Shown: positions 12,627-55,793 of the stretch, piece after piece
How positions within the stretch are numbered: the stretch's first letter is position 1
How the letters are laid out: every line of letters begins with the position of its first letter
NCBI RefSeq assembly: GCF_013122565.1
Contig: NZ_CP053258.1
DNA length: 64,000 bases
From: Escherichia coli
Lineage (GTDB): Bacteria > Pseudomonadota > Gammaproteobacteria > Enterobacterales > Enterobacteriaceae
Direction: 5' to 3' (one strand)
The notes under the pieces: generated by a model
What the model saw: only the letters and a program-made list of their open reading frames with translations
The model's database searches: none
Told to the model about the DNA's origin: nothing
Position numbers and translations under genes: made by a program

Positions 12627-13559
12627 TTATGCGTCGCGATTCAGCCAGGCCATATATTCCGTTACACCTTCGGCAACGGTTTTGAACGGTTTGTCGTAAC
12701 CCGCCGCGCGCAGATTTGTCAGATCTGCCTGAGTGAACGCCTGGTAGCGGCCTTTCAGCTTATCCGGGAACGGAATGTATTCGATCTGGCCTTTCTTGTG
12801 ATAAGCCAGCGTTGCATCGGCTACTGCCTGGAAGGATTCTGCACGACCGGTGCCGAGGTTGAAGATACCGGAAACGCCATTTTCCAGGAACCACAGGTTG
12901 ACGTCTGCCACGTCGCCTACGTAAACGAAATCGCGTTTGAAGTTTTCGCTACCTTCGAACAGCTTCGGTGATTCACCGTTGTTAAGCTGGGTGTTGAGAT
13001 GGAAAGCGACGCTCGCCATGCTGCCTTTATGGCCTTCACGCGGCCCATAGACGTTGAAGTAGCGGAAGCCAACAATCTGTGAATTTGCTTCCGGCAGGAT
13101 TTGACGAACATATTCATCAAACAGGAATTTTGAGTAACCGTAGACGTTCAACGGTTTTTCGTACTCGCGGGATTCAATAAAGTCGGAGGTGCGTCCGCCG
13201 TAAGTGGCTGCGGAAGAGGCGTACAGGAACGGGATTTCACGCTCCAGGCAGTAGTGCAGCAGCTCCTTGGAGTATTGATAGTTGTTATCCATCATATACT
13301 TGCCGTCCCACTCGGTGGTGGAAGAGCACGCGCCTTCGTGGAAAATCGCTTCGACATCGCCGAACTCTTCGCCAGCCATAATCTGGATCAGGAAGTCTTC
13401 CTTATCCATATAGTCCGCGATATCCAGATCCACCAGGTTCACAAACTTGGTGCCGTCTTTCAGGTTGTCCACCACCAGAATATCGGTGATGCCTTTATCA
13501 TTCAGGGCTTTAACGATGTTGCTGCCGATAAAGCCCGCGCCGCCGGTAACGATGATCAT
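12627..13559 (-). CDS. hldD: ADP-L-glycero-D-manno-heptose 6-epimerase
   Basis: 310 aa [23 protein letters not shown]ossmann N-terminus; head of hldD-waaFCL operon. Confidence 0.93.
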
Positions 13560-13772
13560 AACTGTAACCTTCGAATTATGGAGTCAGAGACAATCTCAGA
13601 CACGAATACTTCTATCATATCACTACACGGCGTTGGCTTCAGCCATTCGCCAAAAGTGAGATTGATGGACGTTATTTATCCTGAATTTTGCAGAAGTGTT
13701 AACGCGTCATCTCGTCGCGACCTATAAGTTTGGGTAATATGTGCTGGAATTTGCCCTGTCTGGAGAATCGCA

Positions 13773-14969
13773 ATGCGTGGAGAATTTTATCAGCAGTTAA
13801 CCAACGATCTGGAAACCGCACGGGCGGAAGGGTTGTTTAAAGAAGAGCGCATTATTACGTCTGCGCAGCAAGCAGATATCACTGTGGCTGATGGAAGCCA
13901 CGTCATTAACTTTTGTGCCAACAACTATCTCGGGCTGGCGAATCATCCGGATCTGATTGCGGCGGCAAAGGCGGGAATGGATTCTCACGGTTTCGGCATG
14001 GCTTCGGTGCGTTTTATTTGCGGCACTCAGGACAGCCATAAAGAGCTTGAACAAAAACTGGCGGCTTTCCTGGGGATGGAAGATGCGATTCTCTACTCTT
14101 CCTGCTTTGATGCTAACGGTGGCCTGTTTGAAACGCTGCTGGGTGCGGAAGACGCCATTATCTCCGACGCACTGAACCACGCGTCTATTATTGATGGTGT
14201 GCGTCTGTGTAAAGCTAAACGCTATCGCTATGCCAACAACGATATGCAGGAGCTGGAAGCACGTCTGAAAGAAGCGCGTGAAGCCGGTGCACGTCATGTG
14301 CTGATTGCCACCGATGGTGTGTTCTCGATGGACGGCGTGATTGCCAACCTGAAGGGCGTTTGCGATCTGGCAGATAAATACGATGCCCTGGTGATGGTAG
14401 ACGACTCCCACGCGGTCGGTTTTGTCGGTGAAAATGGTCGTGGTTCCCATGAATACTGCGATGTGATGGGCCGGGTCGATATTATCACCGGTACGCTTGG
14501 TAAAGCGCTGGGCGGGGCTTCTGGTGGTTATACTGCGGCGCGCAAAGAAGTGGTTGAGTGGCTGCGCCAGCGTTCTCGTCCGTATCTGTTCTCCAACTCG
14601 CTGGCACCGGCGATTGTCGCCGCTTCCATCAAAGTGCTGGAGATGGTTGAAGCGGGTAGCGAGCTACGTGACCGCCTGTGGGCGAACGCGCGTCAGTTCC
14701 GTGAGCAGATGTCGGCGGCGGGCTTTACCCTGGCGGGGGCCGATCACGCCATTATTCCGGTCATGCTTGGCGATGCGGTCGTGGCGCAGAAATTTGCCCG
14801 TGAGCTGCAAAAAGAGGGCATTTACGTCACCGGTTTCTTCTATCCGGTCGTACCGAAAGGTCAGGCGCGTATTCGTACCCAGATGTCTGCGGCGCATACC
14901 CCTGAGCAAATTACGCGTGCAGTAGAAGCATTCATGCGTATTGGTAAACAACTGGGCGTTATCGCCTGA
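13773..14969 (+). CDS. kbl: 2-amino-3-ketobutyrate CoA ligase
   Basis: 398 aa ORF, PLP-dependent acyltransferase, recognised as Kbl. Confidence 0.93.
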
Positions 14970-14978
14970 GGATGTGAA

Positions 14979-16004
14979 ATGAAAGCGTTATCCAAACTGA
15001 AAGCGGAAGAGGGCATCTGGATGACCGACGTTCCTGAGCCGGAACTCGGGCATAACGATCTGCTGATTAAAATCCGTAAAACAGCCATCTGCGGGACTGA
15101 CGTTCACATCTATAACTGGGATGAGTGGTCGCAAAAAACCATCCCGGTGCCGATGGTTGTCGGTCATGAATATGTCGGTGAAGTGGTAGGTATTGGTCAG
15201 GAAGTGAAAGGCTTCAAGATTGGCGATCGCGTTTCTGGCGAAGGCCATATCACCTGCGGTCACTGTCGCAACTGTCGTGGCGGTCGTACCCATCTGTGCC
15301 GCAACACGATCGGCGTCGGCGTTAACCGTCCGGGCTGCTTCGCCGAATATCTGGTGATCCCGGCGTTCAACGCCTTCAAAATCCTAGACAATATCTCCGA
15401 CGACCTGGCTTCCATTTTTGATCCCTTCGGTAACGCCGTGCATACCGCTCTGTCGTTCGATCTGGTTGGCGAGGATGTGCTGGTCTCTGGTGCAGGGCCG
15501 ATAGGTATTATGGCTGCGGCGGTGGCGAAACACGTTGGTGCACGCAACGTGGTGATCACGGATGTTAATGAATACCGCCTTGAGCTGGCGCGTAAAATGG
15601 GTATCACCCGTGCGGTTAACGTCGCCAAAGAAAATCTCAATGACGTGATGGCGGAGTTAGGCATGACCGAAGGCTTTGATGTCGGTCTGGAAATGTCCGG
15701 TGCGCCGCCAGCGTTTCGTACCATGCTCGACACCATGAACCACGGCGGTCGCATTGCGATGCTGGGTATTCCACCGTCTGATATGTCTATCGACTGGACC
15801 AAAGTGATCTTTAAAGGCTTGTTCATTAAAGGTATTTACGGTCGTGAGATGTTTGAAACCTGGTACAAGATGGCGGCGCTGATTCAGTCTGGCCTCGATC
15901 TCTCGCCGATCATTACCCATCGTTTCTCTATTGATGATTTCCAGAAGGGCTTTGACGCTATGCGTTCGGGCCAGTCCGGGAAAGTTATTCTGAGCTGGGA
16001 TTAA
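14979..16004 (+). CDS. tdh: L-threonine 3-dehydrogenase
   Basis: 341 aa zinc alcohol dehydrogenase-family ORF 10 bp after kbl. Confidence 0.93.
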
Positions 16005-51261: not shown

Positions 51262-51371
51262 CGGCTGGCCTACGCTCTCGCACCGACTCGTATGCCTGAT
51301 AAGACGTTTTAAGCGTCGCATTAGGCAATGTACTCCCTACGTTGGATGCGGCGCGAGCGCCTTATCCAACC
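51262..51371. repeat. REP-like palindromic units at the yiaT / GH127 junction
   Basis: GCCTGATAAGACGTTTTAAGCGTCGCATTAGGCA and GTTGGATGCGGCGCGAGCGCCTTATCCAAC units; the latter overlaps the GH127 3' end. Confidence 0.6.
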
Positions 51372-53341
51372 TCCGGATGGCGATGCTTTTCCTCATTCAC
51401 CCAGATCCGCATTTCACCTTCACCCCGGTTAGCCCAGCTAAACCACGGGATAAATGTCAGAGTTTGCGGCTGGCGTTTGGCTGGGGCATAGTCGTAATGC
51501 CACAACGGTTGTTGTTCTGGATTGCTCTGTTCATACCGGTAACCCGGTGCCTGGATTAAGATCTTATGGCTGAACAATCCCTTACCTTCAAATGTCGTAA
51601 ATGGCGCATCGGCGGGCAGCCACAGATTATGCAGTGACTCGCCGTTGTCAGCCTGTTCCAGGCAATACACCAGCGGGCCGCGCTGAATCGCCACTTTTCC
51701 GGCGACGTGACGCACCAGCGGGTTACCGTAAACGCGGCGTACCGGCATCGGCAAAGTCAGATTCAGCGTATCGCCCTCCTGCCATTCGCGGGTAATGTGC
51801 AAATACCCTTTACGAATATCCTGCTCGACCTCTTCCCCATTCAATATGATCTGCGGCTGTGTGCACCAGTCCGGCAGACGTAAAGCCAGCGTATGACGTA
51901 CCGGCTGGGGCGATTCAACCGCAATCGTCACCTGCTCCTGCCACGGATAGTTCCCGCTAACCCGCAGGCGCAGCGTGCCATTTTCTACCGGCACTTCCAT
52001 GCTGTTTCCTGCGTATATGTTGATATACAACGCATCTTCACGCGGCGTGTAGAGATAATGACCGATTGAGGTCAGCACGCGGGCGATATTTGGCGGACAA
52101 CAAGCGCAGCCAAACCAACGCTGGCGGATCGGCTTAATGTGATCGTAGATATGGTTGAATTTCAGCGATTTTGGATGTACTTCCAGCGGATTCACATAGA
52201 AGAAATGTTTGCCATCCAGCGCCATGCCGCCGAGCACAGTGTTGTACAGTGCGCGCTCCATCACATCGGCATATTGACTGTCGCCTTCCATTTCCAGCAT
52301 TCGTCGGGCGAACATCATCAGGCCGATGGAAGCACAGCTTTCGGCGTAAACCGTGTCATTCGGCAGATCGTAATCGCTGCTGAACGCTTCGCCGCTACTC
52401 TGTGAGCCAATGCCACCGGTAATATATAACTGACGCTGGGCCATATTGTTCCACAGCCGCAGGCAGTCCTGACGCTTGCTGTCATCGTGACTTAAACGCG
52501 CGAGATGCGCGACGCCGGTCATCAGGTAGACAAAACGTACCGCGTGACCGATGGCGGTTTGCTGTTGCGCAAGGGGCAAATGTGCCTGGCTGTAGGCTTT
52601 GTCTTTCACCATCCACGCCGGGCCGTAGGTGTGCCAGTGCGAGGTCTGCCCGCGCTTTTCATATTCCTGGTCGTAATAGTGCGGTTGCGCACCACGCTGT
52701 TCGACAAAATAGTTCGTCAATGCCAGGTAGCGCGGCTCTTCGGTCACTTCATACAGACGCATCAGTGCCAGTTCAATTTCCGGGTGACCAGGGTAACCGT
52801 GTAACTTACTTTCATCTGGACCAAATACGCTGTCGATATGATCGGCCAGACGGCAAACCACTTCCAGCAAGCGCCGCTTGCCCGTGGCCTGGAAGAAGGC
52901 GACTCCAGCTTCAATCAGATGACCGGCGCAGTAAAGTTCATGACACTCCGCCAGATTGCTCCAGCGTTCTTCGGGCGCTTTTACCGTAAAGTAAGTATTG
53001 AGATAGCCGTCTTCGCACTGGGCGGAGGCGATCAGTTCGATTACCTCGTCGGCGGTTTTTTCCAGTTCGGCGTCCGGCTTCTGGCACAGCGACCAGGCTA
53101 CCGCTTCCAGCCATTTGGCGACGTCGCTGTCCTGAAACACCATCCCGTAAAATTCACCCTCCTGAAGTCCGGCGGCAATGCGAAAGTTTTCAATCGCATG
53201 GCTGGGTTCCGCTTCTGGGATACGATCGTTCAAGGCATCCCACTGATAAGGAATCACCACGTCGCGGACCAGTTGTTGGTACTGACCGAGGAACGGATCG
53301 CTGACCGTCAGTTTATGCAGATCGACTTCCGAAATGTTCAT
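51362..53341 (-). CDS. Glycoside hydrolase family 127 (DUF1680, beta-L-arabinofuranosidase-like)
   Basis: ORF to 53365; probable start MNISEVDL (659 aa) preceded by AAGGAG; conserved ESC and CACCPPN motifs corresponding to GH127 zinc/catalytic cysteines; no signal peptide. Confidence 0.75.
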   Translation of the reverse strand: MNISEVDLHKLTVSDPFLGQYQQLVRDVVIPYQWDALNDRIPEAEPSHAIENFRIAAGLQEGEFYGMVFQDSDVAKWLEAVAWSLCQKPDAELEKTADEVIELIASAQCEDGYLNTYFTVKAPEERWSNLAECHELYCAGHLIEAGVAFFQATGKRRLLEVVCRLADHIDSVFGPDESKLHGYPGHPEIELALMRLYEVTEEPRYLALTNYFVEQRGAQPHYYDQEYEKRGQTSHWHTYGPAWMVKDKAYSQAHLPLAQQQTAIGHAVRFVYLMTGVAHLARLSHDDSKRQDCLRLWNNMAQRQLYITGGIGSQSSGEAFSSDYDLPNDTVYAESCASIGLMMFARRMLEMEGDSQYADVMERALYNTVLGGMALDGKHFFYVNPLEVHPKSLKFNHIYDHIKPIRQRWFGCACCPPNIARVLTSIGHYLYTPREDALYINIYAGNSMEVPVENGTLRLRVSGNYPWQEQVTIAVESPQPVRHTLALRLPDWCTQPQIILNGEEVEQDIRKGYLHITREWQEGDTLNLTLPMPVRRVYGNPLVRHVAGKVAIQRGPLVYCLEQADNGESLHNLWLPADAPFTTFEGKGLFSHKILIQAPGYRYEQSNPEQQPLWHYDYAPAKRQPQTLTFIPWFSWANRGEGEMRIWVNEEKHRHPEVG

Positions 53342-53351
53342 CTTGTGCTCC

Positions 53352-54752
53352 TTAAGGCTGTACATGACGCTGACGCAGGTCGGTAGCTATGCGTGACATC
53401 ATAGGATTATTGAGTTTGCAAAAGCGGATCGCCCCTGCCAGCAGCAGGTGAAATAGCGCAGGCAGTAATGTTTCCATCGCCGCGATCCCGCCAAGCGAAC
53501 TGGCGGTCTGGTTTTCCATGCCTGGCTGGTAGGCGACAAAAATAAACAGCAGGCTGATGATCCCGGCGCTGGAGGCCCAGGCCAGCTTGATGAAAAACAG
53601 ATTGAAGGCGAAGTTCATGCCGGAAGAACGTACGCGGGTTTTCCACTCGCCGTAGTCATCGGCAAAGGCCATCAATGAGAAGTGCAGTGGCAATGTGAAG
53701 CCAAGAATTACGCCATTACCGAGGATCACCGCCAGCCACAGCGTTTGATAAGCCGGGCCGGAGGGCAGGAACCACATCAACACCGCCAGCGCAGCGAGGA
53801 GCAGGTTGGTGTAGTAGTAAATTTTGACGGTATCGAAACGCCGCGTTAACGGGCTGACAATCACCGAGCCGATAATGGAGGCGAAGGTGACCATGGTGAA
53901 GAACAGCGACGTGTAGCCCGTACTGCCTTGTAAGACGTAGGTAATGAAGTACATATACCCACCGCCGCGAATATTAAAGACGTTAATCAGCAGGAAAGAC
54001 ATGACCAGCATCAGCAGCAGTTGGTCGTTGTTCCGCAGCCCGGCAAGATGTTCGCGCAGGGTAAATTTCCCCATTGTGGAGAGCGGCACCCGTTCACGAA
54101 CCCAGAAAAAACAGCACAGGAACATCACCACGGCAATGGCGCACAATACGCCGACGCCCAGTTGATAGCCGCGTGCAGCGTTGCCCTGACCGAAGAGATC
54201 TACCATCCACGGTAAGCCTACCGAAACCAGAAATCCCGCTACGCCGCAGAGAACGAATCGCCAGGACTGGCAGGAGATCACTTCATTGTGGCGGGTGGTC
54301 ATGGTGTTGATCAGCGCGCAGTACGGTACGTTGATGGCGGTATAACCGACTGAAAGGAGCAGGTAAGTACCGAACGCCCAGGCGATTTTTACTCCCATGC
54401 TGGCATCTGGCACGGTGAACGTCAGGATGCCGATAATGCCGATGGGAATGGCAATCCATAGCTGCCACGGACGAAAGCGCCCCCAGCGACTTTGCGTCCG
54501 GTCGGCAATGACGCCCATCACCGGGTCGGAGATGGCATCAAACACGCGCAGTGCAATAAACAGCGTGCCAACCAGCGCCGGAGTTAATCCAAAAACGTCG
54601 GTGTAGAAAAAGGTGAGAAAATTCATGATCAGGCAAGTTATTACGGTGCCGCCTGCGTCACCCAGGCCGTAGCCTATTTTTTCCCGTACAGATAACGCAT
54701 CGTCAATTTTACCTTTAGCGATATCAGCGGTAGTAATCGGTGTAGAGGTCAT
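53352..54752 (-). CDS. GPH-family (MelB-like) glycoside/cation symporter
   Basis: 466 aa ORF, about 12 TM segments; co-oriented directly upstream of the GH127 gene. Confidence 0.75.
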
Positions 54753-54977
54753 AGATATTCCTCGTGAATAGGGAGCAATTTTTAGTTTTATTGCAATGAC
54801 CTGATTAATTCTGCCGTGAACGGGAATATCAACAAGGCGAGAAAAGAGTAAAAAAAGGTGACGATTCCGACCTGTATTTAAAAGTGTGAAATGGATCAGG
54901 TGAAATTAATGTTTTTGATTAATAATCAAAAGGTAATGTGTTTAATCCTTAATAAATAAGCGGGAAATTACATATCA

Positions 54978-55793
54978 ATGCTCGAATTATCCATGACGTT
55001 ACCGATTAAAGTGCAAAATGGTGGATTATTTATTTCCCGTGGCGTAGGGAGGCATCCGGCAAGGCGGCTGGAGTCATGGGAAATTATCTTTGTCGAAAAA
55101 GGTCGATTAACGATTCAGGAAGAAGAACGGATATTTCTGGTCGATGCGGGAGAGAGTTTATTACTCTGGCCGAACCGACAGCATGTTGGGGTGGAGGATT
55201 TTCCCGCCGATCTCAAATTTTACTGGCTGCATTTTGAGGTTAAAGCGCCGGACAACGACCCTCGCTGGCTTACTCATCTTAGCGTGCCGCAACAAACGAA
55301 GGTTGCCGATCCGCAGGCGCTGGTGGCCCTGTTTCGCCAGTTCTTAAGCGAACAGGAAAAGCATCAACGCACTCCGGCGCTGGAGTTTATTGTGCTGCTC
55401 ATTTTGCAGCAGCTCACCCGTGACGCGCGTCTTGATGAACAGGCCGATGGCGCAGGCACCACCCTTGCCTGGAAGGCGCAGAAACTGATTCGCACGCAAT
55501 ATCACCGCCCGCTTTCCACGGCGCTTCTGGCCCGCGAGCTGTACTGCAATGCCGATTATCTTGGGCGTGTCTATCGGCGAGTGTTTCATCTGACGCTTAC
55601 AGAAGCAATCCACCGCCAGCGGGTGCGCGAAGCCGAAAAGCTGTTAATTAGCGAAGCTCGATCGCTCACGGAAGTGGCGGCGTTGTGCGGGTTTAATGAC
55701 GTTGGCTATTTCCGGCAGATTTTTCGCAAGCACACCGGTTTAACGCCAGCAGCGTGGAAGCGGCGTTACAGCAAGGAACATATCAATTCGTAG
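54978..55793 (+). CDS. AraC/XylS-family transcriptional regulator
   Basis: 271 aa ORF; N-terminal cupin-like sensing domain, C-terminal double HTH; divergent from the transporter gene. Confidence 0.8.
   Translation: MLELSMTLPIKVQNGGLFISRGVGRHPARRLESWEIIFVEKGRLTIQEEERIFLVDAGESLLLWPNRQHVGVEDFPADLKFYWLHFEVKAPDNDPRWLTHLSVPQQTKVADPQALVALFRQFLSEQEKHQRTPALEFIVLLILQQLTRDARLDEQADGAGTTLAWKAQKLIRTQYHRPLSTALLARELYCNADYLGRVYRRVFHLTLTEAIHRQRVREAEKLLISEARSLTEVAALCGFNDVGYFRQIFRKHTGLTPAAWKRRYSKEHINS

Follow-up and report, generated by a model that had tools for sequence, protein, structure and literature searches.

The divergent spacer between hldD (rfaD/gmhD) and kbl in the window (the whole 64,000-nucleotide stretch of Escherichia coli DNA analysed here) runs uninterrupted for 213 bp (13560–13772), and it very probably represents the ancestral enterobacterial control region of the two genes, in an allele lineage that never received the htrL cassette. 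In this explanation, roughly one in three E. coli, among them K-12, would have acquired a cassette of ~1.24 kb and 36% G+C at one unconstrained mid-spacer stretch of ~20 bp, with homologous recombination through hldD and kbl as the most likely route. The hldD and kbl control regions would then lie back to back in the window, with a predicted extended −10 and weak −35 on the hldD side leading to a ~47-nt leader that carries a hairpin and a Shine-Dalgarno sequence, and, for kbl, with conserved upstream blocks, a putative TAATAT −10, and its own Shine-Dalgarno sequence.

Gene identities at the locus were assigned from the open reading frames (ORFs) and protein family models. The 310-aa product of hldD (12627–13559, minus strand) is an ADP-glyceromanno-heptose 6-epimerase, scoring as a whole protein 677.5 bits against the NCBIfam equivalog NF008360 (cut-off, 452) and also exceeding the cut-off of TIGR02197 (457.7 vs 274.6), and the 398-aa product of kbl (13773–14969, plus strand) is a glycine C-acetyltransferase (NCBIfam TIGR01822, 745.9 bits; cut-off, 493). 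The tdh gene lies 9 bp 3' of kbl (14979–16004; NF003808, 644.3 bits; cut-off, 380) in the arrangement of a kbl-tdh operon. The hldD side continues with waaF and waaC, and a 419-aa ORF occupies the waaL position; on the kbl side the neighbours are tdh and waaH. The ORF coordinates give a spacer of exactly 213 bp, the length reported in the initial annotation, which had also described htrL as missing here. This absence was assessed by comparison with other genomes rather than by a statistic, and the comparison agrees with direct searches of the window: tblastn with K-12 HtrL found no homologue anywhere in the 64 kb (best E = 0.76), and the K-12 htrL cassette gave zero blastn matches over the same 64 kb, so no remnant of the cassette is present.

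That K-12 has htrL (yibB) between hldD and kbl, as stated in the initial annotation, is borne out by the annotation of the K-12 derivative NZ_CP079736, where the order is rfaD-yibB-kbl and the rfaD-kbl spacer measures 1435 bp; K-12 does not, therefore, have an identical 213-bp spacer with htrL located elsewhere. The window is 100% identical to K-12 over 13460–13607 and 99.5% identical over 13669–13872, and the 61 bp between these segments (13608–13668) correspond in K-12 to 1283 bp with 36% G+C, compared to 51–54% G+C for hldD and kbl. Since window 13608–13651 has a diverged homologue in the first ~44 bp of this K-12-specific stretch, the true K-12 insert is ~1.24 kb and begins after the CTTCAGCC block. 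The insert encodes a 285-aa HtrL_YibB protein (K-12 HtrL matches PF09612 at 7.9e-131), and the cassette has its own promoter-like site (TATACA-18-TATAAT) and intrinsic terminator; Shimada et al. list this same htrL promoter, together with binding of H-NS to the htrL<>hldD spacer of K-12 (PMC3946193). The ends of the K-12 cassette show no terminal inverted repeats and no target-site duplication, and htrL is its sole ORF; lacking terminal repeats, duplication, and transposase, the cassette was not assigned a transposon or insertion sequence origin.

Elsewhere in the window there are further differences from K-12. The first 2400 positions (waaG–waaP) are only ~78% identical to K-12, compared to 88–99% from waaB to hldD, indicating that the waa core cluster is mosaic. 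In relatives, the sequence of a ~5.2-kb insert relative to K-12 (29244–34442) bears the annotation of a YadA-like adhesin gene. The window lacks the RhsA region, which spans ~8 kb in K-12, at 41240–41273, and a segment of ~4.4 kb (51268–55690) is without a K-12 counterpart.

Using a survey set of 5426 complete RefSeq genomes of E. coli, to which the source genome of the window does not belong, it was possible to follow both states of the locus through the species. The contiguous hldD-kbl spacer was found in the majority of genomes (3466 of 5426; 19 full-length rows sampled were single alignments of 1399–1401 bp), and the htrL cassette in 1959 of 5426, 1711 of them at ≥99% identity. The two classes are almost exactly complementary, which makes the locus a two-allele presence/absence polymorphism, and the allele in the window is the commoner one. 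The cassette is carried by, among others, K-12, O157:H7, and O104:H4, and UTI89, CFT073, ST131, and B strains are among those that lack it. Compared to the htrL-less strain AZ147, the window spacer differs by 1 nt, and the best matches of the window among the 5426 genomes reach about 97.9–98.6% (best full-length match, 97.9%). A single E. coli genome, PKF8 (NZ_CP156813.1, near 2949345–2950170), retains beside hldD no more than the initial 218 bp of the htrL cassette and has no matching kbl half, a state that is probably a local deletion or rearrangement.

The possibility that htrL follows the lipopolysaccharide (LPS) core type was considered and rejected. A K-12-type waaL occurs in 1032 of the 5426 genomes, 451 of which also carry htrL (the sampled rows being laboratory derivatives of K-12), and htrL is likewise present in ~1508 of the ~4394 genomes with other cores, so carriage of the gene does not depend on core type. 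The polymorphism itself was known before, and a published pan-genome comparison treats htrL/yibB as a variable member of the E. coli waa neighbourhood (PMC8303582).

The polarity of the change was approached with an outgroup scan that was anchored on Kbl and took one genome per species for the 80 closest Kbl matches; hldD and kbl were both located in 77 of these. An uninterrupted spacer of 202–229 bp was present in 65 of the 77 enterobacterial loci, covering about 30 genera, and the spacer of E. albertii is exactly 213 bp, as in the window. Among the 80 closest Kbl matches, the htrL cassette occurred in four loci, one from Escherichia (Escherichia sp. MOD1-EC7003) and three from Citrobacter (Citrobacter sp. 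R56, C. freundii M-21, and Citrobacter sp. Awk 4, the last of which ends at a contig edge and thus falls outside the 77). Three loci of the Citrobacter youngae group have an insert of 1602–1608 bp without htrL, and five loci from Lelliottia, Enterobacter, and related genera have spacers of 329–340 bp. In C. freundii M-21 (L069, 1291–4000), the spacer measures 2710 bp and holds htrL together with ~1.3 kb more that is devoid of ORFs ≥100 aa, and its sequence upstream of kbl has diverged.

A ChIP study in Salmonella gives kbl<>rfaD as an adjacent divergent pair (PMC10268841), and this adjacency, the spacers of 202–229 bp in 65 of 77 loci, and the 213 bp of E. albertii together identify the short spacer as the ancestral one. 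The window spacer aligns end to end with 66 short spacers, its conserved blocks appearing in the same order across about 30 genera, and its central 61 bp closely match E. albertii. The htrL-bearing alleles of Escherichia and Citrobacter, for their part, have in common a linked haplotype, TAATCATACCATCACAT, beside the cassette. The initial annotation had left the strain as one that either never acquired htrL or lost it; spacer length, the match to E. albertii, and the haplotype favour "never acquired" at the level of the allele.

The alternative that fares best is a secondary loss by allelic replacement, in which the ancestor of the strain bore htrL and an empty spacer was swapped in by recombination with htrL-less DNA. 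Such an exchange would leave a sequence identical to that of a never-acquired allele, recombination around the waa locus is frequent in E. coli, the waa cluster of the window is itself mosaic relative to K-12 (~78% identity over waaG–waaP vs 88–99% elsewhere), and both alleles coexist within one core type, as the 451 htrL-bearing genomes among the 1032 with a K-12-type waaL make clear. Replacement is nevertheless unlikely, as the flanks show no sign of a recombination patch: differences in hldD and kbl number 34 and 28 to K-12 and 29 and 26 to an htrL-less strain, and they are scattered along the genes with no concentration near the spacer. A window that was specially K-12-like beside the junction, as from a recent recombination patch, was rejected on the same counts, the flanks being about equidistant from K-12 and the htrL-less strain. 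The empty allele is, moreover, both the majority and the ancestral state and needs no extra event.

Excision of the cassette, precise or nearly so, from a K-12-like allele would fit the K-12-type core locus of the window (waaU, 419-aa waaL) and the 100% and 99.5% identity to K-12 right up to the breakpoints, but it is highly improbable. The ~44 bp from the leader to the cassette are diverged in htrL alleles (GTCTGTAATCATACCATCACATCCGAATCCCTTCAGCCC, vs ACTTCTATCATATCACTACACGGCGTTGGCTTCAGCCA in the window), and here the window has the empty-site version of Escherichia and E. albertii; a simple deletion is excluded because it would have left the K-12-like TAATCATACCATCACAT haplotype, which the window does not have. 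There are also no flanking direct repeats that could have mediated excision, and no cassette remnant. An assembly artefact, with htrL removed by collapse or mis-join, has nothing specific in its favour and is of negligible probability, given that the contiguous 213-bp arrangement recurs in 3466 complete E. coli genomes and in dozens of other genera.

With an uninterrupted spacer as the ancestral state, the point at which the cassette entered can be placed on a conservation map of 66 distinct short spacers. Near-invariant blocks extend across almost the whole spacer except at 13649–13668, the only unconstrained segment, which shows no column conservation and at which the junction sequences of other genomes place their inserts. 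Three unrelated inserts occupy this position, namely the htrL cassette, a GT4 glycosyltransferase cassette, and an ERIC-like repeat. The second of these, found in the C. youngae group (L007, 2696–3844; L008, L010), is a cassette of ~1.4 kb and ~41% G+C at the same point as K-12 htrL and encodes a 383-aa GT4 glycosyltransferase (Pfam Glycos_transf_1). The third is a ~125-bp, strongly self-complementary repeat (minimum free energy [MFE], −44 kcal/mol) at the same spacer point in Lelliottia, Enterobacter, Huaxiibacter, and Pseudenterobacter (L033, 3749–3885; L034, L035, L040, L045), and in several other loci related ERIC-like copies lie a short way downstream of hldD. On the simplest reading, an insertion elsewhere in the spacer would damage a control region and be removed by selection.

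The suggestion in the initial annotation that the spacer carries divergent hldD and kbl promoters gains support from conservation, in the form of a putative TGnTATGAT element for hldD and a putative TAATAT block for kbl. A search for canonical sigma-70 promoters (≥4 of 6 matches per hexamer, 16–18 nt spacing) returned none in 13460–13872, leaving kbl with no canonical −35, and a consensus terminator scan of the spacer was also negative. As the consensus scan found no site, the promoter assignments are based on cross-genus conservation and not on consensus strength.

On the hldD side, the predicted extended −10, TGATATGAT (13614–13622, minus strand), has a TGn directly upstream of a near-TATAAT hexamer, as in sigma-70 extended −10 elements, and its TG.TATGAT pattern does not vary among the 78 aligned loci, which represent about 30 genera. 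Lying 17 bp upstream of this −10, a weak −35-like CTGAAG is part of the GAATGGCTGAAG block (13637–13648, minus strand), which is conserved in most genera. The start of the hldD transcript is predicted near 13607, from spacing only, and would coincide with the onset of divergence between K-12 and the window; as divergence begins at the predicted start, the transcribed leader would be identical in both alleles and the promoter haplotype alone would differ. The Shine-Dalgarno sequence of hldD, AAGG (13568–13571, minus strand), lies inside a conserved AAGGTT block that is nearly invariant in the 78-locus alignment. Within the 5' coding part of hldD (13500–13514, minus strand) there is also a copy of GCCCTGAATGATAAA, the Rob-binding motif reported for the kbl<>rfaD peak of Salmonella (PMC10268841).

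The hldD leader contains a hairpin (GUCUGAG AUUGU CUCUGAC in the hldD sense; 13583–13601, minus strand) that was recovered by RNAalifold as a consensus structure. Of 72 distinct leaders folded one by one, most form it at the same position. Pair counts on a MAFFT alignment showed 92% of cells to be paired, compared to 16–56% for slid partners, and five of the seven pairs have changed on both sides (69 such cells; a value reached in 0 of 500 shuffles), the compensatory pattern across species, here spanning about 30 enterobacterial genera, that marks a structured RNA. MFE z-scores for single leader sequences are modest (mean, −1.4), so the hairpin is established by the covariation counts and not by the z-scores. 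That the G-U pairs are on the strand in hldD sense speaks for a structure in the RNA transcribed from hldD. The hairpin leaves the Shine-Dalgarno sequence uncovered and is identical in the htrL-bearing and htrL-less alleles of E. coli. No Rfam family was found for it, a search of 13400–13900 at a permissive E-value returning chance matches only (E ≥ 5.6).

The hairpin may, at best guess, stabilise the 5' end or modulate the heat induction of gmhD/htrM-waaF-waaC, though a target for a protein or an sRNA, or a temperature-responsive element, would be just as possible. Stabilising hairpins at the 5' terminus are known from enterobacterial mRNAs, for example in the ompA leader. The heat-induced expression of the gmhD/htrM-waaF-waaC operon is documented in a passage of PMC8745692 that cites Raina and Georgopoulos 1991.

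On the kbl side, the sequence that borders the unconstrained segment is a conserved block with the consensus ACGTGATTTATGCTGCA (13669–13685, plus strand), a candidate regulator site in which positions 13670–13682 are at least 95% conserved over the 66 distinct spacers. It is followed by a second conserved block, GCGTCATCTCGT (13704–13715, plus strand), upstream of the putative kbl −10, and by an invariant block, TTTGGGTAATATGTGC (13729–13744, plus strand), that includes the predicted −10 hexamer TAATAT (13735–13740). The Shine-Dalgarno sequence GGAG (13762–13765, plus strand) belongs to the invariant TCTGGAGA block. In K-12, Lrp represses kbl-tdh. The Lrp consensus YAGHAWATTWTDCTR had no match with up to three mismatches in 13560–13772, though this consensus is weak and Lrp could still bind, and its 102 matches over the whole window are at the level of chance (97.6 expected). 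The block at 13669–13685 was therefore dropped as an Lrp site on motif grounds, having no consensus match. Full-text literature searches returned nothing useful on kbl-tdh and Lrp or on transcription start sites of hldD.

Taken as a statement about this strain, the finding is real, correctly interpreted, and ordinary, and that the strain has the common ancestral arrangement matters little in itself. For annotation, K-12 is the derived state at hldD-kbl, and an htrL that is "missing" relative to K-12 is not to be read as a deletion. Two minor by-products, the insertion-site pattern and the hldD leader hairpin, were not found described in the literature searched. Work on LPS regulation may profit from the conservation map of the control region, which shows where cassettes can insert without disturbing either promoter, and from the covarying leader hairpin, which may play a part in heat induction of the heptose operon. 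Only tentatively, the ~20-bp mid-spacer segment might be a recurrent landing pad across Enterobacteriaceae for small accessory cassettes with links to LPS (htrL, a GT4 glycosyltransferase, and an ERIC-like repeat), which would spread between species via the conserved flanks, and, as a separate matter, the covarying hairpin might set the mRNA stability or heat induction of hldD-waaFC(L).

Compared to the K-12 locus, the window is alike in its flanking genes and their orientation, in the hldD leader (100% over 48 nt), in the 104 bp upstream of kbl, where there is only one substitution, and in its K-12-type waa core locus (waaU, 419-aa waaL). The two differ in that K-12 has a spacer of 1435 bp with htrL and its own promoter-like site and terminator, whereas the window has 213 bp without htrL, and in that the putative hldD promoter region has diverged in K-12. 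The gene with no copy in the window belongs to the HtrL_YibB family (PF09612), an accessory protein linked to LPS/lipooligosaccharide loci that has also been recorded in outer-core loci of Acinetobacter (PMC4172580).

There is close likeness also to the spacers of E. albertii, Salmonella, Citrobacter, Enterobacter, Klebsiella, and other Enterobacteriaceae, with which the window has in common the architecture and length (202–229 bp), the predicted extended −10, the leader hairpin, and the blocks upstream of kbl, and from which it differs by point substitutions only; in S. enterica arizonae, ~12 bp are missing between the −10 and the CTTCAGCC block. The hldD leader may also be set beside the 5' hairpins of the ompA type, which it resembles in that its short stem-loop is separated from the predicted 5' end by a few nucleotides and leaves the Shine-Dalgarno sequence uncovered. 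In the hldD leader it is the pairing that is conserved and not the sequence of the stem, and the resemblance would be one of possible mode only.
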